Assembly (NCBI GenBank): GCA_016840465.1
Contig: JAEOSH010000050.1
Span: 1-16,210, forward strand
DNA: 16,210 nt
Source: Candidatus Baldrarchaeum yapensis
Lineage (GTDB): Archaea > Asgardarchaeota > Baldrarchaeia > Baldrarchaeales > Baldrarchaeaceae
Direction: 5' to 3'
In this document: positions 1 to 16,210 of the stretch, in pieces
Layout of the letters: each line of letters starts with the position of its first letter
Position numbering within the stretch: the stretch's first letter is position 1
Translations under genes and position numbers: made by a program
The notes under the pieces: model-generated
Database searches by the model: none
What the model was told of the DNA's origin: nothing
The model's input: only the letters and a program-made list of their open reading frames with translations

Positions 1-188
1 GGACATAATATTCTGTTAATTAATTACGATTTTGAATTCAATTTATATAATCAAATCTCTCTATCGTGAGAAAATGAGATTAATTTCACGCAGGATCACT
101 GGTGTTTTTGATGTTCCATTTAAAAGCAAATATTTGACCACCGAAAAATAAGAGTTGTAAGTGCAGGATGATGTGCCTAGAAATTTCA

Positions 189-776
189 TCACTTTACTTT
201 CTTTTTTGGAATCCTTACCTCAACGACTCTGTTCTTAAAGTTCACTTGCATTTTAGAGGTGTCGATGTCTTGTGGCAGTTGCGTTTCATGTATCAACCTT
301 CCATCGCAGTAAATCCTTATGGCTCCCTCATGCGGTTCAACTCTTATGCTTTCCTTGTCGGTCGTTGGAACTTCAGCTACGACTACCACCTCGTTGTTCA
401 TCTCTATTACGTCAAGGAGTAAGCTGTCGTTTTCGGTTTGCGGAAATGGCATCGGAGGGTTTATGGGAAACGGGGGCTCTGGAGCTGGTAATGGAAGCGG
501 CATCAGTGGAGGTGATCTTCTAGTATTGTCCTGCCGCGGTGCTTCTTCGATGTACTCGTGAACTTCGGGCTCTCTGCTCCTATCGGTGGATTTCCACTCC
601 CTGACTATCCTTCGTCCATCAGGAAGTATTACCTCTTCTCTTCCGTATGCGATATACCTTTGGAGGACCTTCGTGCCGATTTTATTGTCGATTTCGGGGG
701 TTTCTCTCATCAATGTGCGCAGGAGGCGATCGAAGAAACTCATGATTCTTTTTACATCTTCACTCCACCAGTACAT
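189..776 (-). CDS. Atypical small heat-shock (Hsp20/alpha-crystallin-like) protein with Pro-rich linker, 195 aa
   Basis: The C-terminal ~85 aa fit the alpha-crystallin pattern (LLLDVIEMNNEVVVVAEVP...VNFKNRVVEVRIPKK). N-terminal ILPDGRRIVREW resembles IGPDGKPVVREF of the hsp20 at 15213. Start moved from 785 to ATG 776 because GGAGGTGA (782-789, minus strand) lies 5 nt upstream. Confidence 0.78.
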   Translation of the reverse strand: MYWWSEDVKRIMSFFDRLLRTLMRETPEIDNKIGTKVLQRYIAYGREEVILPDGRRIVREWKSTDRSREPEVHEYIEEAPRQDNTRRSPPLMPLPLPAPEPPFPINPPMPFPQTENDSLLLDVIEMNNEVVVVAEVPTTDKESIRVEPHEGAIRIYCDGRLIHETQLPQDIDTSKMQVNFKNRVVEVRIPKKKVK

Positions 777-796
777 GATGGTCACCTCCTTGTGAT

Positions 797-834
797 GGTC
801 ACCATTTATTGACCAAGGTCATATAATGGTGACC
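797..834. promoter_or_regulatory. Double palindromic operator: two GGTCA-N8-TGACC units 2 bp apart
   Basis: GGTCACCATTTATTGACC (797-814), AA, GGTCATATAATGGTGACC (817-834). The whole 38 bp is itself a near-perfect inverted repeat. It lies between two divergent starts. Confidence 0.75.
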
Positions 835-842
835 TATATATA
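835..842. promoter_or_regulatory. TATA box, possibly bidirectional
   Basis: TATATATA between divergent genes, about 35 nt upstream of ATG 877 and directly next to the operator. Confidence 0.55.
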
Positions 843-876
843 AGTTTATCGCTAATCACATAATGAGGTGAGCAAC

Positions 877-1356
877 ATGGATATCGACGATTACATGAGG
901 TACATGGAGGAACTACTGGAGAGATTGCGAGTCTTGATGACGCAAAACTGCATAAGAATACTTCAAATGCTGGAAGAGCCAAAGTACTGGACACAACTTG
1001 TGGAAGAGTTGAATATGCACAGGTGGCTCGTTAAGAGATATCTAGATAAACTGCTTGAGGTCGGTTTGGTGGAGAGTTTCGTAAAACCGTCGGAACGTGG
1101 ACCACCTAGGCGGTATTACAGGCTTGCTAAAGAACTTGCTATCCTCTTTATAATATCATCGAATGGCGTTTTTATTCGTGAAATCCCCCTAAGTAGCAAT
1201 GAAGTTGCCATTCAGGAGGTTTTAAAGAAGTATCCATCGGTTAGGCGCATCCTCGAGATCGGGCAAGAAATCCCACACGAGGAAATTGAGAAGGAAATAA
1301 ATTCACTTACGCTAGCAATAAGACTTCTACTATCGTTGCGCAGATCCAAACGATAG
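877..1356 (+). CDS. Winged-helix (ArsR-like) transcriptional regulator, Phr/HSR1 heat-shock regulator-like, 159 aa
   Basis: wHTH pattern IRILQMLEEPKYWTQLVEELNM...YLDKLLEVGLVESFVKPSERGPPRRYYRL resembles Pyrococcus Phr (from recall). GAGGTGA precedes ATG 877. Divergent from an Hsp20-like gene. Confidence 0.75.
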   Translation: MDIDDYMRYMEELLERLRVLMTQNCIRILQMLEEPKYWTQLVEELNMHRWLVKRYLDKLLEVGLVESFVKPSERGPPRRYYRLAKELAILFIISSNGVFIREIPLSSNEVAIQEVLKKYPSVRRILEIGQEIPHEEIEKEINSLTLAIRLLLSLRRSKR

Positions 1357-1972
1357 ATTTTCGAAGAAAAATGAAGGTTGCTAATGTGTCATTGCGGAGA
1401 ATCTGCACTATTAAAATCTACCTATAATTTGGAAGTTACCGAAGTCCTCATGTTGATCGTGGCGTCGATCGCGTACTTCTTTATACCTTCGAATCTGAGG
1501 AATCGCGGGGGTATTTCCTCAGGATCTGGAGAGCGATCACTTTGAATTTGACGTACTTCGGCAAAACGCGTGGGCTCGACAGCGGAGCACATGCATTCTT
1601 GAGAATTCCCTAAGTAATTGAGGTGTTTCGTTAAAGAATTCCCTAAACTCTGTGTTACACGTTATTCTTTCGAGAAGCCTTAATGGTTTTTCATGTTTTT
1701 ATGGGGGAACCGCATGTCTATCTGCCTTCGTGGCTTGGATAAATACGTATGAGAAAGTTCAGTTTTTTGTCACTATACGTATCACGGATTCGGGCGGCGC
1801 GGTTTGTGCACAAAGAGAACGCAAATTTTGGACGAATTGATCTTCCGTGATAATGTTGCTGACGCAGGAGGATGAGTGCAGTTCTGAAAGAGAGGGACAT
1901 CCTCTCCTGTCAGTTGGTTGGCGGTATATATGAGTGCTGACCGCGCCCTTCTACTTTTTGCCCTACCTGTCA

Positions 1973-1989
1973 TAGGTAATCGTTACCTT
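1973..1989. promoter_or_regulatory. Palindromic operator resembling a DtxR/IdeR box
   Basis: TAGGTAA-TCG-TTACCTT contains perfect AGGTAA/TTACCT arms. With flanks (1972-1990) it matches 15/19 positions of TWAGGTWAGSCTWACCTWA. Confidence 0.45.
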
Positions 1990-2031
1990 GACGAAAGACA
2001 ACCTTTTGGTGGGGCCCAGTTCATCGAAGGA

Positions 2032-2038
2032 TTTATAA
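2032..2038 (+). promoter_or_regulatory. TATA box of the ECF operon
   Basis: TTTATAA preceded by purine-rich GAAGGA (BRE-like), about 45 nt upstream of ATG 2084. Confidence 0.55.
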
Positions 2039-2055
2039 GTATGTTCTAGGGTATG

Positions 2056-2072
2056 TAGGATAAAATATCCTA
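2056..2072. promoter_or_regulatory. Second palindromic operator over the predicted transcription start
   Basis: TAGGATA-AAA-TATCCTA is a perfect 7-bp inverted repeat with a 3-bp spacer, the same geometry as 1973-1989. Confidence 0.55.
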
Positions 2073-2083
2073 GAGGGCAAAAG

Positions 2084-2653
2084 ATGAACAGGGTGCAGGA
2101 ACTCTCTGTTACAGCGGTTCTTTCAGCGGCTGCTGCATCTCTAAGAATAATAAAGCATCTAATCGCCGGTCCAATACAGTTCGTGAATATACCCGCAGTA
2201 TTTGCGATAATCGGGGGCGCTGTTTTTGGAGCAAGGATCGGATTTTTAGTGGGGCTGTTTTCCTTTGTTATTTCCGACTTCATACTTGGACCAGGCCCTT
2301 GGACGGCGGTTAATTCTATACTTTGCGGCCTCATTGGTGTCATTTCATCGGTTCTATGGTACGGCGAGACGAGTGTAAGCAGACTTGAGGTAGGCGCAAC
2401 CACGTACTTACTATTGTTCATGAACGACATCCTTAACTCTATGATCCTCTATCTGCTGTTAGGATTTTCCATACAGCAAGCGGCCATCATATCGGTCGTT
2501 GGTTTGTTCTTACCAATTGCAGGTGGATGGATGTTTTTCGTGGGGCCAATCACCGAGGGAACCACATCAGTACTTGCCGCCACACTCATGCCAGAAATCA
2601 GAGAGAGGTTGCAATACGTGTTACCAACGGGTGAGAGCGTTGAGAGAGAGTAG
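2084..2653 (+). CDS. ECF transporter substrate-specific (S) component, possibly CbrT-like (cobalamin)
   Basis: 189 aa, highly hydrophobic. It has the ECF-S pattern (GPIQFVNIPAVFAIIGGAVFGARIGFLVGLFSFVISDFILGPGPWT). No EcfA/T genes in the window. Confidence 0.75.
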   Translation: MNRVQELSVTAVLSAAAASLRIIKHLIAGPIQFVNIPAVFAIIGGAVFGARIGFLVGLFSFVISDFILGPGPWTAVNSILCGLIGVISSVLWYGETSVSRLEVGATTYLLLFMNDILNSMILYLLLGFSIQQAAIISVVGLFLPIAGGWMFFVGPITEGTTSVLAATLMPEIRERLQYVLPTGESVERE

Positions 2654-2663
2654 AGCGTTTCTC

Positions 2664-3092
2664 ATGCTGACGGTGGCAATTCTCGTAACGATCTTAGGGG
2701 CATTCATCTCTCATTGGTGTCTAATGGAGAATGGAAAGTCACTGGCAATAAGCGGGGAATCCGGGGAAGGTATCTGGCCAAAATTAGTTTTAAACGTCAC
2801 AGTGGTGATAGACTATGAAAATGGTACTGTTGAGAGGCATATCATCGAGAGACTTTTCTATCCTCATGTGACCGTATTTGATGCGCTGATTGCAGTTGCA
2901 AATGTAAGCTATCGGTATTATGGGGATTTAGTTTTTGTAGAGGGGATTAATGGAGTGTTCAATAATGAGAATAACAATGGCCGATACTGGCAGTACTGGA
3001 TAGATGGAGAGTATGGGCAGGTTGCCGCGAATAAGTGTATTTTGAATAATTGTAGTGTTGTTGAGTGGAGGTACGTTCCTTCACAATTTTAG
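2664..3092 (+). CDS. Membrane-anchored DUF4430 (transcobalamin C-terminal-like) protein, 142 aa
   Basis: N-terminal hydrophobic anchor, then TVFDAL...YGDLVFVEGINGV...YWQYWIDGEYGQVAANKCILNNCSVVEWRY, typical of DUF4430. ATG 2664 lies 10 nt after the ECF stop, so the 2499 start in the ORF track is rejected. Confidence 0.75.
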   Translation: MLTVAILVTILGAFISHWCLMENGKSLAISGESGEGIWPKLVLNVTVVIDYENGTVERHIIERLFYPHVTVFDALIAVANVSYRYYGDLVFVEGINGVFNNENNNGRYWQYWIDGEYGQVAANKCILNNCSVVEWRYVPSQF

Positions 3093-3107
3093 GAGGTGAT
3101 AAACTAC

Positions 3108-3869
3108 ATGTTTAAGCGGAAAAGTTGCTCACACTGCCCACATCTGGTAATAGCGGCACTTGTGGTGTTCCTGCTATTGTTAATGGTGGTTTGCCCATCA
3201 GCATACGCAGTACCGACTGGTGGCTTGCCCATTAAGGAGGGGGACGAGTTTGTATGGGAAATTACGAGGGCGAATGGCTCACCAGCGTTCTGGTGGCATA
3301 CGTATCCCAATGGTAGCTACGAGACAATAACGTACACGTTCGAGAAAGGAGGCCTGCTGAAGTTTAAGATTACAAAGATCACCGAGGAAGAAGTGTACGG
3401 CTCATTAACTGTTGGGAACCTTACGCTTGACAACACCACGCTCTCCGAGATAAGTTGCAACTTAGCGCTTGCACCATGGCCCTATCACAAGGTATTCTCA
3501 CTAATGGTACCGACAGATTGGGAGTATCTCTCAAAGGTTGCACGTGAGAACATGAGTCTGACCGTGAGTGAGAGGGACATTTGGTACTTTACAGGGTCGT
3601 CGTTATGGCATCTACACGTGGTTATTATTAGCGGGACGTTTAAGGGGTTTGCCGAACAACAGGTCTATCTCGTATATGATAAGCAGAGCGGAGTGTTAAT
3701 CGAAGGGATGGGCAAATTTGGCAACTTTGAGATATACCTAGAACTGAGAGATGTGAAAAGTGATGCCTTCAGACCCTTGAACTTCATACTTGTGATTGTA
3801 GGTGTTTCCATAGCCGTTGTGGTTATTTTGATCGCAGCACTGAGTTTAAGAAGAAGGGTGCCCAAATAA
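3108..3869 (+). CDS. Secreted/surface protein with signal peptide and C-terminal transmembrane anchor, 253 aa
   Basis: GGAGGTGA (3092-3099) overlaps the upstream stop. Basic n-region, hydrophobic h-region, AYA cleavage site. Aromatic beta-rich body with YDKQSGVLIE. C-terminal TM followed by RRRVPK. Confidence 0.7.
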   Translation: MFKRKSCSHCPHLVIAALVVFLLLLMVVCPSAYAVPTGGLPIKEGDEFVWEITRANGSPAFWWHTYPNGSYETITYTFEKGGLLKFKITKITEEEVYGSLTVGNLTLDNTTLSEISCNLALAPWPYHKVFSLMVPTDWEYLSKVARENMSLTVSERDIWYFTGSSLWHLHVVIISGTFKGFAEQQVYLVYDKQSGVLIEGMGKFGNFEIYLELRDVKSDAFRPLNFILVIVGVSIAVVVILIAALSLRRRVPK

Positions 3870-3982
3870 TCAAATAATCCTCATTCTTCAATATTTTTAT
3901 TTGTGATCCATTATCTAAATCGTGTTTCTCATAAAATGCATGAATACGTACGTACGAGTAGCAAGATGAGCGAGGTCACCAC

Positions 3983-4381
3983 ATGAGTTCAGCTTCACGC
4001 TACAAGGATTGGTTCTCGGAGGCGGAGGACGATTTTAAAGCGGCACTTCTATTAAAAGAGGGAAAAATGTATGGGAAGGCTTGTTTCTTTGCGCAACAGG
4101 CTGCGAAGAAGGCTTTGAAGGCATTACTTTTAAAATTGTATAAAACTTACGAAGATACGCACAGTGTAATGAAATTATTGTCAAAGCTAAGCGGGTTTTT
4201 GAAATTAGACGATAAATTGCGCGCATGTGCACAGTTACTTGATAGACATTACCTTCCCCCTAGGTATCCGAATATGTGGCCATCTGGTGCACCTCATGAA
4301 TTTTATAACGAGGGGGATGCCGAGGAGGCGATCGACTGTGCAAGAAGAATTCTTGAACTCGTTAGACGGCATATTACATGA
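3983..4381 (+). CDS. HEPN domain protein (HEPN-MNT toxin-antitoxin-like pair)
   Basis: WFSEAEDDFKAA...ACFFAQQAA-KALKALL...HSVMKLL...LDRHYLPPRYPN...AEEAIDCARRIL. GAGGTCA precedes the ATG. Confidence 0.9.
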   Translation: MSSASRYKDWFSEAEDDFKAALLLKEGKMYGKACFFAQQAAKKALKALLLKLYKTYEDTHSVMKLLSKLSGFLKLDDKLRACAQLLDRHYLPPRYPNMWPSGAPHEFYNEGDAEEAIDCARRILELVRRHIT

Positions 4382-4802
4382 TATTAAGAGAAGGAATCCC
4401 TCATTTGATGAAATTGATGGTTTAAAGAAACTAATACTTGAGATACTTCGCAAATATAAGCCAAAAGCCATTATAATAGCGGGATCGCTCGCTGAGGGAA
4501 AGTGGATAAGAGGGATGAGTGATATTGATATTCTTGTCATAACAGATGCTGTTCGGGGCGAGAAACTCACTATGCGCTCATTCATTACTAGCATAAACGA
4601 GGTTGATGCGCAGGTTTCTATGTTTACGGAAGAGGAAGTTTTAATGGGCATGGACAATTTGAACTTCTTCTTCATTTCGGCGATTTATTACGGGATTCCC
4701 GTTTATGGTAGTGAATGTTATCAAAGGCTCAAAATGCATTTAGAGAAAATGATTTCGGAGCGTAAAATCAAGAGAACAGAATATGGTTGGGTTTTTGAAT
4801 AG
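4338..4802 (+). CDS. Minimal nucleotidyltransferase (MNT), partner of HEPN; start uncertain (GTG 4338, ATG 4317 or TTG 4353)
   Basis: IIIAGSLAEG...SDIDILVI carries the pol-beta GS...DxD motif. Overlaps the HEPN 3' end. GAGGAGG (4322-4328) precedes GTG 4338. Confidence 0.85.
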   Translation: MQEEFLNSLDGILHDIKRRNPSFDEIDGLKKLILEILRKYKPKAIIIAGSLAEGKWIRGMSDIDILVITDAVRGEKLTMRSFITSINEVDAQVSMFTEEEVLMGMDNLNFFFISAIYYGIPVYGSECYQRLKMHLEKMISERKIKRTEYGWVFE

Positions 4803-4821
4803 AAATTAGGAGGGCCCCATT

Positions 4822-6688
4822 TCACTCGGGAAGTTTTATGTCCTTGGTATATTTTTCAAGCCCTAATTCCCTTACTTTACTCCTTGTCGGTCTTCCGTCC
4901 TTCCATCCTCTGAGTTTATAGTACTCCCCGAGCATTCTATCCAAGTGAACCACTTGGCCCTTCGATAGGCCTCTGGGTATGGGTTCCTCCAAGAACCTCT
5001 TCGGAAGAGTATCGTATTCCTTACCGTCGCCGAAACTTTTCACGTTAAATATTCTCTCGGCGTTGTATATCCTTTCTCCGATTTTTAGGAGTTCTTTCCA
5101 TGTTATGTCCCATCCGGTTACTGCTCCGAGTACCTCCGCAAGGTGTGGAAGTTCAAAGACATACGTTATGAACTCGCAAACTATCATGCTATCGACGGCG
5201 GCCTTAAGGTTCTGAGAGTACACGACAAGTTTTGCCCTGTTTTCTTCTGATAATCTATCGGGATATTCGAATAGGGCGTAGATCTCCCTCTTAATGGTAT
5301 ATCCCCTCAAATGGCAACCTCCTCTATTACTGGTGGCATAGGATAGTGCTTGTCCTTTCGCACCCCTGGGATCGTAGGCCGCCCATGTTTGCTTCCTCAC
5401 GGTGGGCGCTATATCGGTCATGTTATATTTCTTTGCAAGTCTGTATGCCCCCCTCGGCTAGCAGGTTTCCGATTCCTTTCCTATAGGCTATTAGCTCTAT
5501 AAGCCTGAAAACGGCGTCTTCATTCCCCCATACCGGCTTTAGTCCCTCAAGATCACTCAACTCGGAGTCTTTAATAATTCCTCTCTCGTATAACTCGAAG
5601 AGGAGACCGATGGTACCTCCGAGTTCTATGGTATCCAATTCCAGTTCGTTTGCCATATAATTTACCTTAGCGACCGCCTTTAGGTTGAACATTTCCAAAT
5701 TTGCTCCGAGCATGGCAAGGGTTTCGTACTCTGGGCCCGCCCCTTCTCCCTTATACTTCTCGTCCTCAACCCTAGTGTACTTGCCGCATCCCATTGGGCA
5801 ATAAGCGCATGGGTCATTGCTTACTAGGATCGTTGCCGCCATAAGTTCCCTACTTATGTTATGGGCTAACTCGTGGTATCCGTATCTGAAGTTTCTTACC
5901 GGGAGTATACCTGCTTCGTTGATGAAAGTTATGGCCATAGGTGTTCCAAGTATCGGGAATATTGCAGTTGCTACGGCGTTTTCTCCGATAATTTTTCAGA
6001 TGGTGCTTAACTACCTCCCTGAACCTTTCTTCATCCTTCATCGAGGGTCTAAGGGTGCCCCTCACGGCTATTGCCTTTAACTTCTTAGAACCCCAAAACC
6101 GCCCCATGACCTCCCCTTCCGACTGCTCTTCCTCCATCCACCATCAGAGATGCGTACAACACCTTGTTTTCTCCAGCCGAACCTATTGAAAGCACGCTCA
6201 CCTTCTTGTCTCCCAGTTCCTCCTCAATGATTTTTGTTGTTTCTCTAGTGGTTTTTCCCCACAGGTCTTTAGCGCTTCTTATTTCGACCTCCCCATCACG
6301 TATCCATATCCAGACGGGCTCCTCTGACGCCCCCTCAATTATAATTCCGTCAAATCCGGATTGCTTGAGTTATGCCCCAAAGTGACCCCTGCGTGAGAAT
6401 CGTGGACTGTTTCGGTCAAGGGGGACTTTGTGACGCTAACCCATCTTCCAGACGTTGGATATCTCGCGGCGGTGACCAGTCCTGTGAGGATGAACAACTT
6501 GTTTTCCGGGCTCAGGGGATTGACTTTCGGATTCACTTCCTCCAGCATATACCATACTCCGAGACCCCGTCCCCCCACCCACTTTCTTAGCACATCCTCC
6601 TTGGGCAGTGATTCGATGGATACCTTTTTCTTAGTTAGATTCACGCGTATAATTTTCCCCAGTATCCTCCCGGATATTCATCCGTCAT
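4822..6688 (-). pseudogene. aor: Tungsten aldehyde:ferredoxin oxidoreductase family gene, disrupted
   Basis: Reassembled pieces read GGYWGKIIRVNLT..WVGGRGLG..KSPLT..SHAGGHFG..GFDGIIIEG..GRGGHGAVLGSKKLKAI..GPEYET..ELDTI..YDPRG..NRGGCHL, about 621 aa. Lesions: single-base indels at 6653-56, 6386-89, 6091-94, 5992-96 and 5448-53, plus an in-frame TAA at 6370-72. Confidence 0.92.
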
Positions 6689-6704
6689 ATATTTCACCCG
6701 CTGG

Positions 6705-7187
6705 TCATTCTAATGCTTCTGACGATGGTATTTGGGACGATGCGACCGCCTTTCGCATGATTGCCTTGTAGGCCTCTCTTGTTATGATTATATCTGTTGA
6801 CAGTTTTCTTCCCATCAGGAAAGCTAAAAGTATCCCAATTAGAAACGCCACCACCGCGAAGATTGCGTTCAATAGTATTGAGTACTCCTTGAGAGGTGTT
6901 GCTTGGGATGTAAGCATGTACACTCCGCATAAGGTGGCTATAAAGAGAATTGCCTGTGGTGCTATGAATTTCACTGGCAATTTTAACTCTTTTATTCTTA
7001 CGAAGAACTCAGCATCCGAGGAGTCCCTTAAGAGAGCCCTGCCATCGAGCAAAATCACAACCCTAGCCCTTCCGGGAATCACGGCTGCAATCGCGCCGGA
7101 TATGAATCCTCCCACGAGCGCAATGATCATACCCACAAATTCGGGAGGAGGTCCCAGAATTCCCGGCATGTCCATCCCCACCAGCAT
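6705..7187 (-). CDS. Hypothetical membrane protein, about 3 TM helices, 160 aa
   Basis: Three hydrophobic segments (MIIALVGGFISGAIAAVI; AILFIATLCGVYML; ILLNAIFAVVAFLIGILLAFL). The stop lies 16 nt before the aor start, so co-transcription is likely. Confidence 0.65.
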   Translation of the reverse strand: MLVGMDMPGILGPPPEFVGMIIALVGGFISGAIAAVIPGRARVVILLDGRALLRDSSDAEFFVRIKELKLPVKFIAPQAILFIATLCGVYMLTSQATPLKEYSILLNAIFAVVAFLIGILLAFLMGRKLSTDIIITREAYKAIMRKAVASSQIPSSEALE

Positions 7188-7316
7188 TTATCCTCTTTAA
7201 TTTATTGCAAGCAAAATGTAAAGGTTACGGGGATGTGTATGGACGTTTTACTCGTTTTGTGTCTAATTCCGAATTATCATCGCCTATTAATGCCCCATAC
7301 ACTATCATTCGGGTTG

Positions 7317-8912
7317 TCAACTGGTTAGAAGACTCTCTTTTGCGTATACTATTTTGCCACCGACAATGGTCATTTCTACCTCTATTTCGTCAATTTTGCC
7401 CTTTGGAACCTCGAAGGGGTCCTTTGACAGAACAACTAGGTCTGCAAACTTCCTTGGCTCTATGCTTCCCTTTTTATTTTCATCAAACGAAGAATATGCT
7501 GCATTTATAGTATACATTCGGATTGCCTGATTGACACTTAGGGCCTCCTCTGGGAAGAATCCGTTTCTCTCGACCGCTGCCCTTATTCCCGATAGTGGAT
7601 TTATTGGTTCAACCGGGCAGTCGGAGCTCCCAGTTAGGAGTATACCGTTATCGATCATTGTTTTGAACGGGTATACGTGCCTTATCCTTTCAGGTCCGAG
7701 TCTACTGGGTAACCATTCCTTATCGGACACTATGAAGTGTGGTTGAACAGATGCGATAACTCTTAGCCTTCTCAGGCGTTTAATAAGGGATGAATTGAGC
7801 AGGGAGGCGTGTTCAATGCGGTGTCTGTGATCTTCCCGTGGAAGTCTTCTTAGCGCCTCCTCTATAGCATTAAGGGCCACTTCAACGGCTTTATCTCCTA
7901 TACAATGTATAGCGACTTGGATTCCATCTTTATGTGCCCTATATACGATCTCGTTGAGCGTTGTCTGATCGAACCAAAGGATTCCTGTGTTGTCCGGATC
8001 ATCGCTGTAAGGTTCCGTCAGAGCCGCTGTTCGCGCCCCTAAGCTTCCATCTAGTATTATTTTCAATGCTCCCAAACTCAGATAATCCTTAGATCGTTCG
8101 AACTCTTTCTTTAATTTTGAAACGTGATGCAGTAGGTTTACAAATGGAAGTATGTGAACCCTTAGTGGCAACTCTTTACTTTTAAGCATTCTTTGGAATG
8201 CCCTGATTTCTTGAATCGACTTTACTATACAATGCACGGACGTTAATCCGTGGCGTATGGCTTCCTTGCACGCCGCTTTCAGAATCTCATATAGCCTTTC
8301 ATCGGAAAGGGGGATTGCGCTTGTAACCATCATGGCTGCTGTTTCCTTTAATATTCCAGTCGGCTGGCCTGTTTTCGGGTCTTTATCTATCTCTCCACCG
8401 GGTGGTGGCGGTGTTTTCTCTGTTATGTTGAGTTTTTCGAGAGCCCTACTATTAAGAGTACATACATGCCCGCATACGCGGAATACGACTACAGGGTTTT
8501 CAGGAGATGCCTCGTCGAGGTCCCATCGCGTGGGAGGTCTTTTTTCCGCCAGTTTACCTTCATCCCATCCAAAGCCGATGATCCACTCATCTTTTTTCGC
8601 TCTTTTAGAAAAGTCAGATATTTTTTCCTTCATTTCAGCGATAGATCTCACATTCTTGAGGTTAATGGATGATAGAAGCAACCCATATTCTGTAAGGTGG
8701 ACATGCGTATCTATGAATCCTGGGAGAACAGTTTTTCCTTTTAAATCTATCACACGAGTACTTTTACTCACTAGAGACAGTATTTCTTCGCTTGTGCCAA
8801 CTGCAAGAATTTTTTCTCCTCTTATAGCTATCGCTTCGGCCCTCGGCAGCTTATCGCTCATTGTTATGACGTTTCCGTTAATTAAGCAGATATCCACGCC
8901 ATTCTTATTCAT
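7317..8912 (-). CDS. Metal-dependent amidohydrolase, YtcJ/Amidohydro_3 family, 531 aa
   Basis: DLKGKTVLPGFIDTHVH, KIILDGSLGARTAAL, QVAIHCIGDKA, RHRIEHAS, GSSDCPV and KGSIEPRKFADLVVL motifs. Confidence 0.92.
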   Translation of the reverse strand: MNKNGVDICLINGNVITMSDKLPRAEAIAIRGEKILAVGTSEEILSLVSKSTRVIDLKGKTVLPGFIDTHVHLTEYGLLLSSINLKNVRSIAEMKEKISDFSKRAKKDEWIIGFGWDEGKLAEKRPPTRWDLDEASPENPVVVFRVCGHVCTLNSRALEKLNITEKTPPPPGGEIDKDPKTGQPTGILKETAAMMVTSAIPLSDERLYEILKAACKEAIRHGLTSVHCIVKSIQEIRAFQRMLKSKELPLRVHILPFVNLLHHVSKLKKEFERSKDYLSLGALKIILDGSLGARTAALTEPYSDDPDNTGILWFDQTTLNEIVYRAHKDGIQVAIHCIGDKAVEVALNAIEEALRRLPREDHRHRIEHASLLNSSLIKRLRRLRVIASVQPHFIVSDKEWLPSRLGPERIRHVYPFKTMIDNGILLTGSSDCPVEPINPLSGIRAAVERNGFFPEEALSVNQAIRMYTINAAYSSFDENKKGSIEPRKFADLVVLSKDPFEVPKGKIDEIEVEMTIVGGKIVYAKESLLTS

Positions 8913-9948
8913 GTTTTCGCCACTCTCGCATTGCTTTCGTAATGCTTGCAGAGATTTTACTATGAAGGGGAGTTTCTCCCAGTAATAACTGTTGCTCGAT
9001 TGATCAAGGAAAACCTCACTGTTACATCACCAACAGCAGTCGATATGGCACGAGTTCACATTTCTAAATAATAACCGAGCGCGTCGGAATCTACTCTTTA
9101 ACTTCCGAAAATTTCTCTATCTTTGCATAATTGATGCAATGCGCTACAAAACTCCGGTTCGCTGAAAAGATTTGCTTAAATATTTCGTACTCATCAAGCA
9201 AGAGGTAGAAGTTTCGAATGAGTGATGAGGATGAGCATTCTGAGACGCGTGAAGGTCTATAATTTCAGGAGCATAAGGGAAGTGGACGTGGAGTTAAAGC
9301 CGCTCACAATATTTGTTGGCCCTAATGCTGCGGGGAAGTCTAGATTCTGTATGCGATAGCGTGGCTGGCGCTTAGGGCCACGTATAATCCTCACCTCGGT
9401 AGCCAACCACATGACGTTGAGAAGAAGTTGCTGAAAATAGAATCTTATGATGACCTTGCGCTCAATCGAGACCTCTCTAAGGTTTCTATAGGAGTGGAGA
9501 TAACATTCGAGTTGCCGCCCGAGTTAAAGTCCAATTTTAAGAGACTGATCAATATGATCGATTGGCCGATGCTCTCGGGGTTGAGAAGCCGGAGCTTAAG
9601 GTTCTGAGTTACGGTTTCAGGATAAGCAAAAAGAACAAAATACTCTACTGCGACATTTCCCTTTCATTGAATGGTGCTAAGATGGAGATCTCGTCGGAAT
9701 ACGACTCGGTTACGGATACCACGGTCTGGACGCTGAAGTTTCCGCCGCATTACAACATAAATGGTATGGGTAAGCTTAATTATGAACTCTTTGGGAAGTT
9801 AGACATTCATCTAAGAGTTGTAGAGGCAAAATCACCACTTAGTGAGAAAGAAAGCAATACTCTTGAAAGATTAGATTACTTCATCGAGAGGTTGCTGAGG
9901 TATGTGAGGGATAACCTCATAGTTGGAAGGATATTTCTCCTAACCGTT

Positions 9949-10130
9949 CTGACTCTCCGCCACTTTTGTTGCAATTAACGCGTGTGTGGCGGAGAGCCTT
10001 CCCGTCTCGGGGTCCATCGACGGGCTTTCGCGGGGAACGGTGCTCCGCACATCCATCTGCCCCCTTTGCTTCGCCCTTTCGGGCTTCCCTCCCTCTCACC
10101 GTCCCTCCCACATCCCGAGCGGAGCCCGCT
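9949..10130 (-). ncRNA. Candidate structured RNA, omegaRNA/reRNA-like; ends approximate
   Basis: GC-rich, with a GCCC-GAAA-GGGC tetraloop hairpin (10073-84), a CCCGUC/GACGGG hairpin with tandem G.A pairs (10001-24), long-range pairs 10119-25/10042-48 and 10098-105/10034-41, and a terminal 11-bp stem. TATA about 20-25 nt upstream. Confidence 0.55.
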
Positions 10131-10148
10131 TAACACAACGGAACCGTC

Positions 10149-10163
10149 CTTTATAAGGGTTTT
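10149..10163 (-). promoter_or_regulatory. TATA box inside the mini-element, pointing at the structured RNA
   Basis: The minus strand reads AAAACCC-TTATAAAG. The predicted start near 10125-10131 coincides with the start of the GC-rich folded segment. Confidence 0.55.
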
Positions 10164-10931
10164 AAAGGTTTTGAGGTTGCAAAGGTGCATGGGGGCAACA
10201 AATGCAACACTATACGTTTCTGCCCCACTCAGGGGAGATGTGCCGATTTGCTCACTCGTGGATTTAGACGTATCTGTTGGGGCCTCACGGCGAAAACCTG
10301 CTGAACGCCGCGGCATACGCTCTTGCCCATCACGACCTCTCCATAAGGATGAAGTTGGGAGAGTGGATAAGGCGGTGGTCCGAAAGGTCCGGACTTAAGA
10401 ACTTCTGTGCGGGTCCCGAGAGAAACGTGATAAGGGCCTCATTCAAGGACTTAGATGCGGTTCTCGACTTGGCGATGGGCAGTTTTGGGAGCAGGCAAGT
10501 AGCGACTATGATCACGCAACTTATAGTGACGCCACGTCGGAGCGTTGTTATGGTAGAGGAGCCCGAGTTATGCCTCCATCCCGAGGCGCAGACTCTACTT
10601 CCGTTGCTCTTCGCAGATGAGATGTGATAAAGAAGCATGACAAGCAAGTTATTATTACCATGCACAGTAACATATTGATACTGGCGTTGAGCGATGCGGT
10701 AATGAGATCCGAAGAGTATCCCGATGTTCCGAGGCTGAATGACGATGATATTGCCCTTTATCACGTACCAGAGGGCCGGATGGGAGCACCAAAGTGGAGC
10801 GTATAGAGCTATCGGAGGAGGGACTTCCGGTCGGGGGAGTACCTTCCTTCATGGAGGTTGAACGGAGACTTTTCATGAGACTCATATCTAGATTAAAGTC
10901 CCGCATGTAGTATATCGTAGGAGTAGTGGTG

Positions 10932-12170
10932 CTATGGTCCGATGTGCCCGATGCTTGTCTGAACTATCACTTTTTTGAGTCCCGCGTTCTCCAATACTTC
11001 CTTTACCATCAACATGTCATCAACGGTGGGTCGTGGCATATTCCACTTTCGGAATTCTCCTCGGTAGTCGAGAACACAAACCTGAATGTCGGGGTCTATT
11101 TTTGCGATTTCCAGCCCCATCTTGTAGATCTCATCGAATGTGGGGTGGAATTCCCGGTTATAGGGTATGCCTATTCCCATGAAGACCTTATCCGGGTAAT
11201 AGTTGTCGGCGATGTATCGTACCGCCTCCCACTCCGTCTTTAGATACTTCTCCGCCAATTCTTTATCCGTAATGTTCGTTATCAGTTGGAAGGTCTCCAG
11301 TTTCAGCGCCTTGATATCCGGTCCTATATCAGTGATCCCCGTGTCTTCTATCAGTTCGTCGATATAGTCCTTTGTCAGGATAGTCGCATTTGTGTCGAGA
11401 TGAAATCTCGCTTTCTCATCTCTATTCAGCTTCCTCAATTCTTTGAAGAACTGCACAAGCCAACGTCTATTTATCGTGGGTTCCCCGCCGCTTATTGCCA
11501 TCCGGTGAACTCCATATCTTCTGCGGTAACTTGTCAAGATGCGCGCGGCCTCCTCGGGCGTCAATGGGCTTAGAGAACTGTTGTACGTCACATGGTAATT
11601 CTGGCAGGTGGGGCACCTCAGATTGCAACCAGCAGCGAACGCCGCCACTTCTATATACTTCCCCTCGTATTTCAACCAATATGGCGTCCCCACACCACCC
11701 ACCGGATGAGGACTGAAGCCCTCTACTATTCTTAGTGGAGTGATTCCTTCCACATTCGTGCAGATCTCCATACCCTCTCTAACTGGGGTGTGACATGCGG
11801 GTTTTAACTCTCCATCAACGAGAACCGCGCACGCATAACATCCTCCCGTGTTACAGGGTGCAAACATTTTTCCCGGTTCAGGATAGCGCGTAAACACGTA
11901 CCCTAGTATTTCAAGCGCCTTTTTTACTGTTATGTACTCGGGAACCTCGTACTCCACCCCATCCACCTTTATCTTTATATATCTTCGCTCACTCTTATCC
12001 TCGACTGGAATTCTGGCGTAGTATGGGCAAGCAAGGTAGCACGCCTCACATCCTATGCATCTTTCGGGGCTCGGGCATTTAACGATCGTTTCGCAAAATC
12101 CGCATTTCACACATTTTGTCGGATCCACTACGTACTTAAAGAAGCGCATTTTGTCTTCCCGCCCGTGCAT
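10932..12170 (-). CDS. Radical SAM protein (PFL-activase-like) with N-terminal 2[4Fe-4S] ferredoxin and [2Fe-2S] domains; alternative start 12149
   Basis: CVKCGFC...CP and CIGCEACYLACP (ferredoxin); PCNTGGCYAC...PAC (2Fe-2S); GCNLRCPTCQN (CxxxCxxC); ISGGEPT; LDTNA. Confidence 0.88.
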   Translation of the reverse strand: MHGREDKMRFFKYVVDPTKCVKCGFCETIVKCPSPERCIGCEACYLACPYYARIPVEDKSERRYIKIKVDGVEYEVPEYITVKKALEILGYVFTRYPEPGKMFAPCNTGGCYACAVLVDGELKPACHTPVREGMEICTNVEGITPLRIVEGFSPHPVGGVGTPYWLKYEGKYIEVAAFAAGCNLRCPTCQNYHVTYNSSLSPLTPEEAARILTSYRRRYGVHRMAISGGEPTINRRWLVQFFKELRKLNRDEKARFHLDTNATILTKDYIDELIEDTGITDIGPDIKALKLETFQLITNITDKELAEKYLKTEWEAVRYIADNYYPDKVFMGIGIPYNREFHPTFDEIYKMGLEIAKIDPDIQVCVLDYRGEFRKWNMPRPTVDDMLMVKEVLENAGLKKVIVQTSIGHIGP

Positions 12171-12449
12171 CTCACCTATCCTCTAAACATTTAACATTTA
12201 ATTGAAGTCTTTCGTAATTTTGTTTAACGCCATACACTTTATTCTCAACAGTAGAAGAGTTCTAAATTCAATTCTGCTACACTGTTCAATTTTCGACGTG
12301 TAGACGGCATATCATCGTAACTAGAAAGTTCATACGGTTTCCCTTGACGCTGAGGTCGGGAGACTATTGACAGTAAAGTTAATGTAGTTGTATCTTCCGT
12401 TTTAAAATATCAGGTGCGATTTCCGTTAAACCTGTTGGAGGACAAAGTT

Positions 12450-13157
12450 GTGAGTGGAGATGTGAATAAGGTAGATGAGGCATTACGCATTCTTTCGAAA
12501 GTTGAAGAGATCTTAAGAGGTCTAAGGGGTTCTATCGAGCAGGCGGACCGTATAAGATCGGAGAACGAGGCGCTGAAATCCGATTTGGAAAAATTGAAGG
12601 CGGAGGTTGAGCGCAGGGATCTACGCATAAAGGATTTGGAGAACGAAAATAACGAATTAAAAAGCAAATTAAAGGAAAAGGAGGAAGAAGTGAAGAGATT
12701 AAGTGAGAGGGTTGCATCTCTGGAGGACGAAAATCGTAGGCTTGAGCAAGAACTAAAAATTACCAGAGAAAACCTGTCTAATGTTGAGAAGTCCAAGAAG
12801 GAGGTGGAAGAAGAAAATAAAAAGTTAAAAGACGAGCTTAATAAAATATCTGAGCAACTTGAAAAAATTTCGAAAATGTACGGCGAGTTAACACGTGAAA
12901 GGGAAAGAGTAGAAAGCGTAAGAGAACTTTTAACTATCTATGTAACACTACTTGAGACAGTCTTTGCGGGTATGCCTCATGCTAGGATTCTCTGGCTACT
13001 GCATGGCGTTCCTAAAATGAAGAGAGCGGAGATAACCAAAGCCTCCGGATTTGAGCCTGCTGTCGTGCTCAAGAGCATTCATGATCTTGAAAGAGCTGGG
13101 CTTGTGAGGTTTAATAGGCAGAAGGATGAGGTTCATCTTCTAAGGAAATTATTTTGA
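12450..13157 (+). CDS. Long coiled-coil protein with C-terminal winged-helix domain, about 235 aa
   Basis: About 130 aa of E/K/L-rich heptads, then PHARILWLLHG..KRAEITKASGFEPAVVLKSIHDLERAGLVRF (wHTH). GGAGG (12437-41) favours GTG 12450 over 12414. Confidence 0.8.
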   Translation: MSGDVNKVDEALRILSKVEEILRGLRGSIEQADRIRSENEALKSDLEKLKAEVERRDLRIKDLENENNELKSKLKEKEEEVKRLSERVASLEDENRRLEQELKITRENLSNVEKSKKEVEEENKKLKDELNKISEQLEKISKMYGELTRERERVESVRELLTIYVTLLETVFAGMPHARILWLLHGVPKMKRAEITKASGFEPAVVLKSIHDLERAGLVRFNRQKDEVHLLRKLF

Positions 13158-13185
13158 CAGACCTACTGCCAGTCATTGTATTGTA

Positions 13186-13640
13186 CTATTCTTGTAATTT
13201 GATCCCGAACGTGCAGATGTCCCCAATCCCCCACCTTATGTTTTTCTCCACGGCATCTATCGAAACTTTAGGCGTTCGCCCTCCTATGGCATCGACGAAT
13301 CCTAAAAGAAGTCCCGGGACGACGCATGCGGTTCCCTCAAATTCGTAGCCACCAACACGTTTCGGACAAAAGTGATAACCCTTTACCTTTATGCGGAGAA
13401 TTTCGTCTCTATATTAACCTCGACCTCATCAGCAAGGTCTATGACTTTCAGGAGATGTTCTATTTTCTCATTTATGCTCTTTTTGTCCCAATCTGGAGTG
13501 TTACTAAAGGTTTTTGCGTGTTCAATGCCGGCGTGGTAGCTTGCGATCGTTACTATTCCCTGCACGGACTTTCCCGAAACAGTACTCATTCCGTAAGTAA
13601 ACCCAATGTTACAATGTGCGAGTATGTTGAGTTCTTTCAT
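13186..13640 (-). pseudogene. V4R-like small ligand-binding domain protein, one frameshift, about 151 aa when repaired
   Basis: The 83-aa ORF continues after a -1 shift near 13414 as (K)YRDEILRIKVKGYHFCPKRVGGYEFEGTACVVPGLLLGFVDAIGG...GDICTFGIKLQE, ending at TAG 13186-88. C..PGLLxGF and C.F.I match the V4R pattern. The 3' half is absent from the ORF track. Confidence 0.62.
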
Positions 13641-13723
13641 GTTCTCCCCCTTAATGTTCTGTCAGTGGAATGAATCAAATAAAATATAAATATGTCGGTT
13701 CTTCAAGTCGATTGCTGGCGCGA

Positions 13724-14296
13724 TCACTTTCGTGGCATCGCTATTATTTCTCTTATCTTTAGGTCGGAAAACATTCTGGAAATGTCGGTTGATTTTATCA
13801 TGACGGCGGTATCGGCTCCTCGTCTCGTCCCCGCAATTGCTATTACGTCCGTGTTTGAGGGAATGGCCCCCGCCGCGACCGCCATCAGAACTATTTCGAC
13901 GCATACCTTCATACCTTGACAAAACATTCTCAGTGTCGCATTAACTATGTCTATGGGATCCCCTCCGCGTTCCCTGAATGCTCTGGGAACCATTGTGAAC
14001 ACATCTGTGCCTATGACTAGTGTCCCACCTTTCTTTGTTATCTCATCGGCGAATTCCTTTTTCAGGGCTATCTCTCCGGGCTTTAGAAAGCCGTACTGAT
14101 GCGTTACAACGACGACTTTGATGCCAGAATCCTTAAACATGTCGACGGCCTTTACTCCCGTCTCGCCGGTGGTTGAGGCGACGACGACATACTTGATTCC
14201 TCGTTCCTTAGCCCTCTCCAACGCGGCTCTCAGGGTTGCATCCGTATTTTGGGGGCCGGGCGAATCGAAATATATTATTTTTTCCTCGACTGACAT
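13724..14296 (-). CDS. Pyruvate kinase C-terminal-like (PK_C, MTH1675-type) conserved archaeal protein
   Basis: IIYFDSPGPQNT...YVVVASTTGETG...VVVVTH...LRMFCQGMKVCVEIVLMA...IAIAGTRRGADTA...KIREIIAMPR. Confidence 0.85.
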   Translation of the reverse strand: MSVEEKIIYFDSPGPQNTDATLRAALERAKERGIKYVVVASTTGETGVKAVDMFKDSGIKVVVVTHQYGFLKPGEIALKKEFADEITKKGGTLVIGTDVFTMVPRAFRERGGDPIDIVNATLRMFCQGMKVCVEIVLMAVAAGAIPSNTDVIAIAGTRRGADTAVMIKSTDISRMFSDLKIREIIAMPRK

Positions 14297-14366
14297 TTAG
14301 ATCCCTACCCACTACTGGTACACTATCTGAACTTTTAATGGAATATTACGTTTGTGGTAACGCGGG

Positions 14367-15104
14367 ATGAAGCATATGCCAAGCTCGGAAGATGATATAG
14401 TTGAGATATTGCAGACGAACAAGGTGAAGCGCGACAGGGCGATAAAAATAGCAAATAAACTTTTAAATCTCGGAGAAGTGGAGTATCTCGCAAAAGGCAC
14501 GAGTTTCGTTGTTTTACTTCTCCGGACGCCGGAGGGTGATCGGAGAGTTGTTAAAATAGAGAAGGATGATATTACGGCGAGCGGTGCTGCATGTAAAGAG
14601 GCGCATTTTTTACGGATCGCAAACAGCATTGGAGTCGGGCCGCGACTGTACTCTTATGATCATGACCTTCGTTACCTAATAACGGAGTATTTTGATGGGG
14701 AGTTTATTATCGATTTTCTGCTCAGGGAGAAAGATGCTGAGAAAATTCGCAAAACCGTGATCAGTGCTCTGATGGACGCTTTTAGACTCGATGAGTTAGG
14801 TATCACGCATAAGGAGCTTGCATCACCGAAGAGGCATATAATAGTGACTAACGAGGGGCCGAAGTTTATAGATTTTGAGAAGTGTAGCAAGTCCAAGAAG
14901 CCGAAGAACCTGTCGCAACTCGTGCAGTTCTTTTTCTTGAATCCAAAATCTCCGTTCAGGGGCAAAATTTTTTCCATTTTCGGGTTAAAGGATGATGATG
15001 TCAACAAACTCGTCGAATTAATCCGCGAATATAAAAGGACGGAGAAAAAATCGGAAATTTTTCGGAGGATTCTGCAAATACTCGGGCATTCGGGTCCCAT
15101 TTGA
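14367..15104 (+). CDS. Archaeal Ser/Thr protein kinase (Bud32/RIO-like, COG2112-type)
   Basis: YLAKGT (Gly-rich loop), VVKI (VAIK-like), KEAHFLRIANSIGVGPRL, ITEYFDG, GITHKEL, FIDFE. Confidence 0.82.
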   Translation: MKHMPSSEDDIVEILQTNKVKRDRAIKIANKLLNLGEVEYLAKGTSFVVLLLRTPEGDRRVVKIEKDDITASGAACKEAHFLRIANSIGVGPRLYSYDHDLRYLITEYFDGEFIIDFLLREKDAEKIRKTVISALMDAFRLDELGITHKELASPKRHIIVTNEGPKFIDFEKCSKSKKPKNLSQLVQFFFLNPKSPFRGKIFSIFGLKDDDVNKLVELIREYKRTEKKSEIFRRILQILGHSGPI

Positions 15105-15212
15105 AAATTGCCGCGAAAGTTCCGTTGCATTATATGTACGAACTTGCTTCATTAGAAAGTTTCATGTAGTCGTGGTAATAACATCAATAGTTAGGCAAAC
15201 GGGGGGAAGTCG

Positions 15213-15758
15213 ATGCGCGAAAGAAGGCGAAGATGGTGGCCGTTTGACGAAATTTTCGAGGAAATGAGAAGGATTTTCGAAGAGATAGAGGAGAGTATTT
15301 TCCGTGAATGGGAAGAGTTCGAAAGGATGCTTCCTAGAACAAAAACTCCATCGGGAGTGGAAATACATGGTCCAATTGTCTGGGGCTGGTCGCTGACCAT
15401 AGGTCCTGACGGAAAGCCCGTAGTAAGGGAGTTCGGCAACCTCCCACGGCCCTACGAACTCAGAAGGGGTCTAATAAAGGGCACACGTGAGCCGCTAATC
15501 GACGTGATAGAGGGAGATGAGGAGATTATCGTCGTTGCTGAGACCCCTGGGGTTGAAAAGGACGAGATAGAGTTGCATGCGACGGAAAGAGAGCTTGAAA
15601 TAAAGGCCGGTGATAAGTACTATAAGAAGTTAGAGTTACCAACTGAGGTAATCCCCGAGAAGGCAAAGGCGACATATAAGAATGGTGTTCTCGAAATAAG
15701 GATTCCGAGAAAGACCCCGAAGGAGAAACCAAAGGGAACTCGGATAAAGGTCGAATGA
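15213..15758 (+). CDS. hsp20: Archaeal small heat-shock protein Hsp20
   Basis: WWPFDEIFEEM..., GPIVWGWSLTIGPDGKPVVREFGN, EPLIDVIE..VVAETPGVEK, ATYKNGVLEIRIP, and a C-terminal IKV motif. Confidence 0.93.
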   Translation: MRERRRRWWPFDEIFEEMRRIFEEIEESIFREWEEFERMLPRTKTPSGVEIHGPIVWGWSLTIGPDGKPVVREFGNLPRPYELRRGLIKGTREPLIDVIEGDEEIIVVAETPGVEKDEIELHATERELEIKAGDKYYKKLELPTEVIPEKAKATYKNGVLEIRIPRKTPKEKPKGTRIKVE

Positions 15759-15838
15759 TCCCCGTACTTTCACACCTCCCATCCTATTTATTCATAGACC
15801 GTTTTTGATGGCTTTCACGCCTTGGCAAAAATAGAAAT

Positions 15839-15846
15839 TTTTATAT
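15839..15846 (+). promoter_or_regulatory. TATA box of the thermosome gene
   Basis: TTTATATA-like box after A-rich AAAAATAGAAA, about 55 nt upstream of ATG 15902. GGAGGAGG ribosome-binding site at 15887-94. Confidence 0.55.
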
Positions 15847-15901
15847 AGAAGTGCTAATCAAGGAGTCTTTCGGCTGAGCATAAAATGGAGGAGGATTTGA
15901 T

Positions 15902-16210
15902 ATGGCAACACAGGGAATCCCCGTCATAATCCTGAAGGAAGGAACCCAGAGAGCGGTCGGACGCGACGCGATGCGGTCCAACATAATGGCCGCGCGCATA
16001 ATTGCGGAGGCCGTCAGAACGACCCTAGGTCCAAGAGGAATGGACAAAATGCTTGTTGATAGCCTCGGTGACGTGACCATCACGAACGACGGCGCGACGA
16101 TTCTGAAGGAGATAGACGTGCAGCACCCCGCTGCGAAGATGATGGTGGAGGTTGCGAAGGCGCAGGACAATGAGGTCGGCGACGGGACGACCACGGCCGT
16201 CGTCCTCGCG
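15902..16210 (+). CDS. ths: Thermosome (group II chaperonin) subunit, 5' part; runs off the window end
   Basis: Translated by hand (missing from the ORF track because it has no stop): [17 protein letters not shown]...[63 protein letters not shown]. Confidence 0.98.

Follow-up and report, generated by a model that had tools for sequence, protein, structure and literature searches.

Can a locus that encodes neither a transposase nor a nuclease supply a guide RNA for TnpB, and towards which target would such an RNA lead the nuclease? The question is raised by a short minus-strand feature in contig JAEOSH010000050.1 of the uncultured Asgard archaeon Candidatus Baldrarchaeum yapensis, of which positions 1 to 16,210 were analysed here (the window, 16,210 nucleotides). 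A preliminary description of this DNA had proposed an orphan cassette encoding an omegaRNA-like transcript whose guide is taken from the flanking host sequence. Our preferred reading, which we regard as probable, is that positions 9944–10226 (minus strand) are a non-autonomous IS607-family MITE that has kept its LE, a TATA promoter of its own and the omegaRNA scaffold of its parent TnpB, and that would act as a homing guide through TnpB supplied in trans.

Copies of the element and their IS607-family parent

The element lies within a host gene on the plus strand (9170–10806) for an AAA_15/AAA_21-type ATPase (AbiEii/OLD-like), recognised with Pfam in a three-frame translation and carrying a Walker A motif, GPNAAGKS, near 9250. 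Besides the MITE insertion the gene carries at least three frameshifts, which make it a pseudogene, and taking out 279, 280 or 281 nt restored no complete host ORF. It has a decaying look and is possibly of a defence type. No homologue of the gene was found in 200 sampled genomes of the phylum, and there is therefore no orthologous empty site with which the locus can be compared. The preliminary description had the cassette transcribed antisense to the host gene; the orientation is correct, but its consequence is small in a gene broken by several frameshifts. The genes on either side are intact, and both are uninterrupted ORFs on the minus strand: one encodes an Amidohydro_3 family protein of 531 aa (7317–8912) and the other a radical SAM protein of 412 aa with N-terminal 4Fe-4S and 2Fe-2S domains (10932–12170).

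When positions 9929–10330 were used as a query against the organism's own genome (2.27 Mb in 100 contigs), 12 near-full copies at 86–94% identity were recovered together with fragments, and about 14 MITE copies are present in the genome. The MITE is 279–283 nt long, the window copy comprising 9944–10222 and a GGGG run at 10223–10226 on the minus strand. An alignment of the copies with their flanks showed that all of them start ..GG|GGCAGAAACGTATAGTGTTGCATT and finish ..GGCGGAGAGTCAGAACGG, that similarity stops outside these limits and that the flanks are unrelated from copy to copy. The only protein-coding content is a relic of 39 tnpB codons, without a transposase or nuclease ORF. A covariance model of the RNA scaffold, described below, matched 21 sites in the genome, only one of which lies beside a tnpB; of 151 genomes sampled from the phylum, 19 contained matches. 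The cassette is thus one of many and not the single orphan first described. Given the degree of identity between copies, the family does not appear to have been active very recently.

The LE (10175–10222, minus strand; CAGAAACGTATAGTGTTGCATT...) is conserved in all copies and contains GTTGCA/TGCAAC repeats, which may be binding sites for TnpA. Between the LE and the TATA box, just upstream of the latter, the copy alignments revealed a 9-nt duplication, AAAACCTTT (10164–10172, minus strand), that is limited to the window copy and the copy on contig C80.

Three further arrangements of family ends were observed in the same genome. Two MITE copies, at C39:1-300 and C69:3164-3480 (G000), have the same left flank and different right flanks, a pattern that points to recombination among the copies or to an assembly drawn from heterogeneous strains. 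A second type of mini-element, at C82:5700-5959 (L007 2366-2625), shares the left end (50 nt) and right end (30 nt) with the MITE but encloses a different, GC-rich interior; it carries a TATA-like box of its own, is matched weakly by the covariance model (35.8 bits), and its interior has no match to any other tnpB 3′ end in the genome. Finally, at C76:22492-24413 (L010 993-2914), a solo left end is followed by 1.7 kb with a 231-aa ORF containing a V4R/DUF5943 domain and by a shortened MITE that retains the TATA box, scaffold and right end. Such a locus may represent a composite that carries cargo between two family ends.

On contig C96 the MITE query gave two matches, 1.85 kb apart, that bracket two genes. 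By Pfam, the first encodes a 204-aa TnpA with Resolvase and HTH_17 domains and the second a 436-aa TnpB with a Cas12f1-like TNB domain; this TnpB can be aligned to solved TnpB/Cas12f structures over RuvC-II, the zinc ribbon and RuvC-III, and the DRD is present. The C96 element is an intact IS607-family element and the parent of the MITE. The left junction of the MITE matches the C96 LE at 90% identity over 31 nt (MITE positions 4–34, made up of three junction G and about 28 nt of LE), and in blastn the last 115 nt of the MITE match the 3′ end of the C96 tnpB and the right end at 85% identity. As expected of an IS607 MITE, both ends are homologous to those of an autonomous IS607 element, both junctions have a GG core (its position being good to within 1–2 nt) and show no further target-site duplication, and multiple copies without a transposase or nuclease ORF are found in differing contexts. 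The serine recombinase and the GG core rule out membership of the IS200/IS605 family.

A relic of the C-terminal codons of tnpB, QMDVRSTVPRESPSMDPETGRLSATHA..KVAESQNG, overlaps the RNA scaffold at 9943–10059 on the minus strand and was detected by both tblastn and blastn. Its frame, QMDVRSTVPRESPSMDPETGRL... (10059–9943), matched C96 TnpB residues 364–402, with the alignment continuing to residue 417, at 61% over 54 aa (E = 1e-17, tblastn). The resemblance to a TnpB tail in the preliminary description proved to be real and to concern a TnpB of the same genome; the comparison with tnpB 3′ ends that had been recommended returned the 115-nt match given above and a tnpB resident in the genome. That tnpB is the one cognate gene in the genome, and its product is catalytically plausible as the effector of an omegaRNA. 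Two more IS607-like elements are present, with TnpB identities of just 27–28%.

A scan of genome contigs identified TnpB relatives at 57–81% identity in MAGs labelled Bathyarchaeia, Archaeoglobaceae, Thermoproteota, Undinarchaeota, Baldrarchaeota, Asgardarchaeum, Thermococcus and others. All of them end in CAGAACGG, followed by unrelated sequence. Among these relatives, L026–L058 place the same TnpB family and right-end terminus in MAGs from hot habitats that are assigned to six or more archaeal phyla, which implies a wide horizontal spread of the TnpB family across archaeal phyla.

The parent tnpB (G000:C96:26822-28132; L009 1823-3133) has no stop codon inside the element. Its reading frame crosses the scaffold and the right end and continues for 34 more codons into an interrupted sulfatase-like gene. 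In the relatives the tnpB stop also lies in the flank, often as TAA/TAG straight after the GG. Immediately past CAGAACGG, 19 of 32 distinct insertions have a T, a bias that may reflect target preference at +1 or selection for an early tnpB stop.

The RNA scaffold, the TATA element and the 5′ stem

The folded RNA of about 180 nt in the preliminary description was recovered as a 187-nt fold (10130 to 9944, minus strand) of −76.9 kcal/mol with z = −2.4, and 1 of 200 dinucleotide shuffles was as stable. The GC fraction of the folded stretch reaches up to 0.56, against about 0.45 in its surroundings.

A first alignment of 24 MITE and tnpB 3′ ends resolved three stems, in which 16 of 24 pairs carry compensatory changes. 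From this 24-sequence region we built a covariance model, as had been suggested for homologues of the RNA, and used it to realign 41 sequences from several archaeal phyla. In the realignment standard pairs occupy 94.1% of cells, compared with 40–48% when the partners are slid; changes on both sides were seen in 20 of 23 pairs, compared with 7–10; and the covariation score is 0.427, compared with 0.04–0.08. None of 500 shuffles reached the observed values. Much of this covariation signal comes from tnpB-carrying elements, in which the RNA acts in cis. Across the 41 sequences, compensatory changes affect 4 of 5 pairs in stem S1 (10029–10049), 5 of 6 in stem S2 (10001–10024; CCCGTC / GACGGG) and 11 of 12 in stem S3, a terminal hairpin of 12–13 bp (9951–9998; GGCTCTCCGCCAC / GTGGCGGAGAGTC), all on the minus strand. 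The S1 loop, CCGUUC (10040–10035, minus strand), is complementary to the 3′-terminal GAACGG, and the two may form a pseudoknot; both partners are nearly invariant, so that covariation is uninformative here, and a C.A mismatch is present in eight other copies.

The transcript would therefore resemble an omegaRNA on two counts: its conserved secondary structure is supported by covariation, and its sequence originates from a tnpB 3′ end and right end and terminates at the transposon boundary. Searches against known RNA families were negative. Rfam gave no matches over the whole window at the gathering score, with TnpB-associated motifs such as RAGATH-18 among its curated families, and two chance-level matches only between 9850 and 10350 at E up to 10; a tRNA scan of the window returned none.

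Upstream of the scaffold lies a candidate archaeal promoter (10149–10162, minus strand), defined from the copy alignment as an A-rich BRE-like stretch followed by the TATA box TTATAAAG (10156–10149) that the preliminary description had already picked out. The TATA columns are invariant in 13 aligned MITE copies, one of which, at 68% identity, is from G003, another species of the same order. We infer that this element probably acts as the promoter of the MITE. It is nearly palindromic and might instead be a protein-binding site; the sites of Cbo TnpA include a TATA portion (Zedaveinyte et al., bioRxiv 10.1101/2023.11.20.567912).

Between the TATA box and S1, RNAalifold applied to the MITE-only alignment A3 identified a MITE-specific 5′ stem-loop (10068–10125, minus strand), in which GCTCCGCTC (10125–10117) pairs with GGGCGAAGC (10076–10068). 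The 9-bp stem closes a GAAA hairpin and is common to all copies; compensatory changes are found in the G003 and C75 copies, and the window copy has one C.A mismatch. Upstream of S1 the resemblance of the MITE to tnpB coding sequence ends, and no corresponding conserved stem was found in related tnpB coding sequences. With the homology to the tnpB 3′ end and right end, the covarying scaffold and the conserved TATA box, the notion of a stand-alone cassette, whose RNA a TnpB encoded elsewhere in the genome could load, is supported at the level of sequence.

A structured right end might also persist for no reason of its own. The MITE could be a deletion derivative that TnpA is able to move, its scaffold inherited baggage and its RNA either not made or not used. 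The divergence between copies, the stem mismatches in some of them and the presence of a single cognate tnpB in the genome would suit such an inert relic, which we nevertheless consider unlikely. Between the window MITE and the G003 MITE, 9 of 42 pairs are compensatory at an overall identity of 68%, which argues that the structure has been maintained within the protein-less lineage and not only in tnpB carriers. Furthermore, the TATA box is invariant and the MITE-only 5′ stem covaries in both lineages. Serine recombinases take duplex DNA as their substrate, and RNA-type stems are of no use to them. Ends of 60 bp suffice for excision by TnpA in CboIS607 (bioRxiv 10.1101/2023.11.20.567912), and by analogy the structured right end of about 190 nt exceeds what a recombinase should need. 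A functional RNA, used in trans as in our preferred reading, is plausible on these grounds.

Junctions, guide and the proposed homing cycle

The right end of the MITE terminates in AGAACGG (9944–9950, minus strand), which is both the end of the scaffold and the end of the element, and of which the last GG is the likely crossover core. This terminus is common to all 32 distinct family right ends examined, with divergence immediately beyond it; likewise, ...GAGTCAGAACGG is common to all copies and all related tnpB elements, which diverge only after it. Because the element ends at 9944, the guide would begin at 9943 with TTAGGAGAAATATCC, and the flank to be transcribed as guide is predicted to be TTAGGAGAAATATCCTTCCA (9924–9943, minus strand). 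The right end had previously been placed at GAGTCAG (9949), which is 5 nt short, since all copies and relatives run through AACGG to 9944. Accordingly, the AACGG with which the earlier guide (9948–9929) started belongs to the element. That the guide would match its own site stands, albeit by construction for any omegaRNA in place, whereas the guide sequence does not.

At the left junction, a GGGG run (10223–10226, minus strand) would comprise the GG crossover core and two upstream G and is a candidate for the TAM at the donor joint. Among the 16 family left junctions in this genome, positions −1/−2 are GG in every case, a G occupies −3 in 13 of them and −4 in 11, and the relatives agree. The window copy reads GAGT-GGGG|CAGAAAC at its left junction and ACGG at its right end. 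From these junctions the predicted donor joint is ..CCCCTGAGTGGGG|TTAGGAGAAATATCC.. (equivalent to ..GAGTGGGG|TTAGGAG.., or ..GAGTGGGGTTAGG.. when written as joined), in which the candidate G-rich TAM would sit beside the guide-matching TTAGGAGAAATATCCT. The empty allele in the preliminary description, CCTGAG|AACGGTTAGG, was never observed and is at odds with the copy alignment, and its TGAG TAM is replaced by the GG-cored (GGGG) sequence of the left junctions.

A search of metagenome contigs for the empty site, with its flanks joined, gave 0 matches. The parent element interrupts the sulfatase-like gene, whose reading frame gives two G in the empty site; this is at odds with the simplest GG-core model. 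Owing to this misfit and to the lack of an empty allele, the core position is uncertain by 1–2 nt. A 16-nt MITE-specific pattern occurred at 80 loci in metagenome contigs, but the covariance model matched 0 of them, which marks them as chance matches.

These features suggest a cycle in which the MITE would promote its own retention. It would have retained the LE, a dedicated TATA promoter and the final ~190 nt of its ancestor (the tnpB 3′ end and right end), with a scaffold made up of the MITE-specific 5′ stem, S1 to S3 and the 3′ AACGG tail. A transcript directed by the TATA box would begin near 10126 and extend through the scaffold into the flank, giving a guide from 9943 (TTAGGAG...). The serine recombinase TnpA of C96 would move the MITE in trans by recombination at the GG core, and excision would leave the predicted donor joint with its G-rich TAM, whereas the occupied site, ..AACGG|TTAGGAG.., would be without one. 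TnpB from the intact copy, loaded with the MITE RNA, would then cut the empty site only, and the MITE would be regained when the cut is repaired by recombination with an occupied sister copy.

The distribution of guide matches is consistent with such a cycle. The 16-mer guide of the window copy has its sole occurrence in the genome at its own site when up to one mismatch is allowed; each MITE's 16-nt guide, at the same threshold, matches only its own flank, and off-targets at up to three mismatches were found at random background only. Guides that match their own flank fit homing and retention better than the regulation of distant genes.

Nearer to hand, the MITE might mainly be a mobile promoter or a source of antisense sRNA for neighbouring genes, or a decoy that titrates TnpB, and not a homing guide. 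Its promoter would read outwards and send a transcript antisense into the flanking gene, and there are about 20 scaffolds for each tnpB. However, the flanking gene here is a pseudogene, the differing flanks share no common target, and conservation falls on the scaffold stems and not on the flank-proximal sequence; we regard these roles as quite improbable. The version given in the preliminary description, with its right end at GAGUCAG (9949), guide AACGGUUAGG..., TGAG TAM and corresponding empty allele, draws on the fact that a 279-nt removal (9949–10227) equals the excision length of the GG-core model, but is scarcely credible in the face of AACGG at 32 of 32 distinct right ends, including tnpB elements of other phyla that diverge only after it, and of left flanks that finish in GG or GGGG and not in TGAG.

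Relation to known systems and meaning for the family

Standalone omegaRNAs without an effector or transposase have been reported to be mobilised and to function in trans (Altae-Tran et al. 2021, as summarised in PMC10691335). Like the loci in that summary, the MITE combines a scaffold and guide without a nuclease or transposase, with effector loci in the same genomes. It differs in being an IS607-type (serine recombinase) derivative of an Asgard archaeon, with a putative TATA promoter of its own and an extra 5′ stem; the summary itself is silent on the effector families and hosts of its loci.

PATEs are reported often to encode omegaRNAs that require TnpB in trans (Meers et al. 2023, PMC10055086). 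The PATE-like IS200/IS605 elements of Geobacillus stearothermophilus (PMC10055086) are, like the MITE, protein-less, consist of LE, RE and omegaRNA, and require TnpB from outside. In contrast, PATEs are served by a Y1 HUH transposase and have ssDNA hairpin ends and TAM/TEM guide sequences, whereas the MITE has a serine recombinase as its partner and GG-core junctions. We considered assignment to the PATEs, which are defined by subterminal hairpin ends recognised by a Y1 HUH TnpA, and rejected it on account of this partner and these junctions; the MITE would be PATE-like in its working without being a member.

A parallel to the junctions is found in the experimentally characterised CboIS607 system, where the TAM/target is TGGG, the GG core is strict, the right end is TCGG and self is distinguished from non-self at position −3 (bioRxiv 10.1101/2023.11.20.567912). 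The CboIStron/IS607 of Clostridium botulinum resembles the MITE in its GG core and serine TnpA, in a scaffold that reads ..CGG directly before the guide, and in a G-rich TAM as opposed to C at −3 in the right end. Near its 3′ end there is also a pseudoknot, and its TnpB promotes retention after excision. The Cbo element is full-length and bacterial, with a group I intron, and its mini-IS was an engineered construct, whereas the MITE is natural, multicopy, archaeal and intron-less. Among archaea, the MITEs of Haloquadratum walsbyi (PMC3119063) are likewise short non-autonomous repeats and are treated in that source together with tnpB and palindrome-associated elements; we claim for them here neither a guide-RNA role nor a link to IS607.

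The concept of a standalone omegaRNA that serves in trans has been published before, and the putative archaeal promoter and the added 5′ stem of the MITE are modest novelties. The value of the locus is that of a well-resolved example, together with a correction of its boundary, and it brings no new principle. It provides a clean natural case, from an uncultured Asgard archaeon, of an IS607 TnpB guide-RNA module that has become an element in its own right, multicopy and probably driven by its own promoter. The compact scaffold of about 125 nt with its covariance model, the TnpB family and the candidate G-rich TAM together give a defined protein–RNA pair for biochemistry.

A bolder reading of the MITE, which we offer tentatively as possible though short of probable, is that it is an independently evolving selfish element consisting of guide RNA only. 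Such an element would have lost both proteins, gained a promoter and a 5′ stem, and kept its scaffold by compensatory evolution across species of the order, outnumbering TnpB by about 20 to 1 by turning the homing activity of the nuclease to its own retention. If this reading is true, the MITE would be a parasite of a parasite in Asgard archaea.
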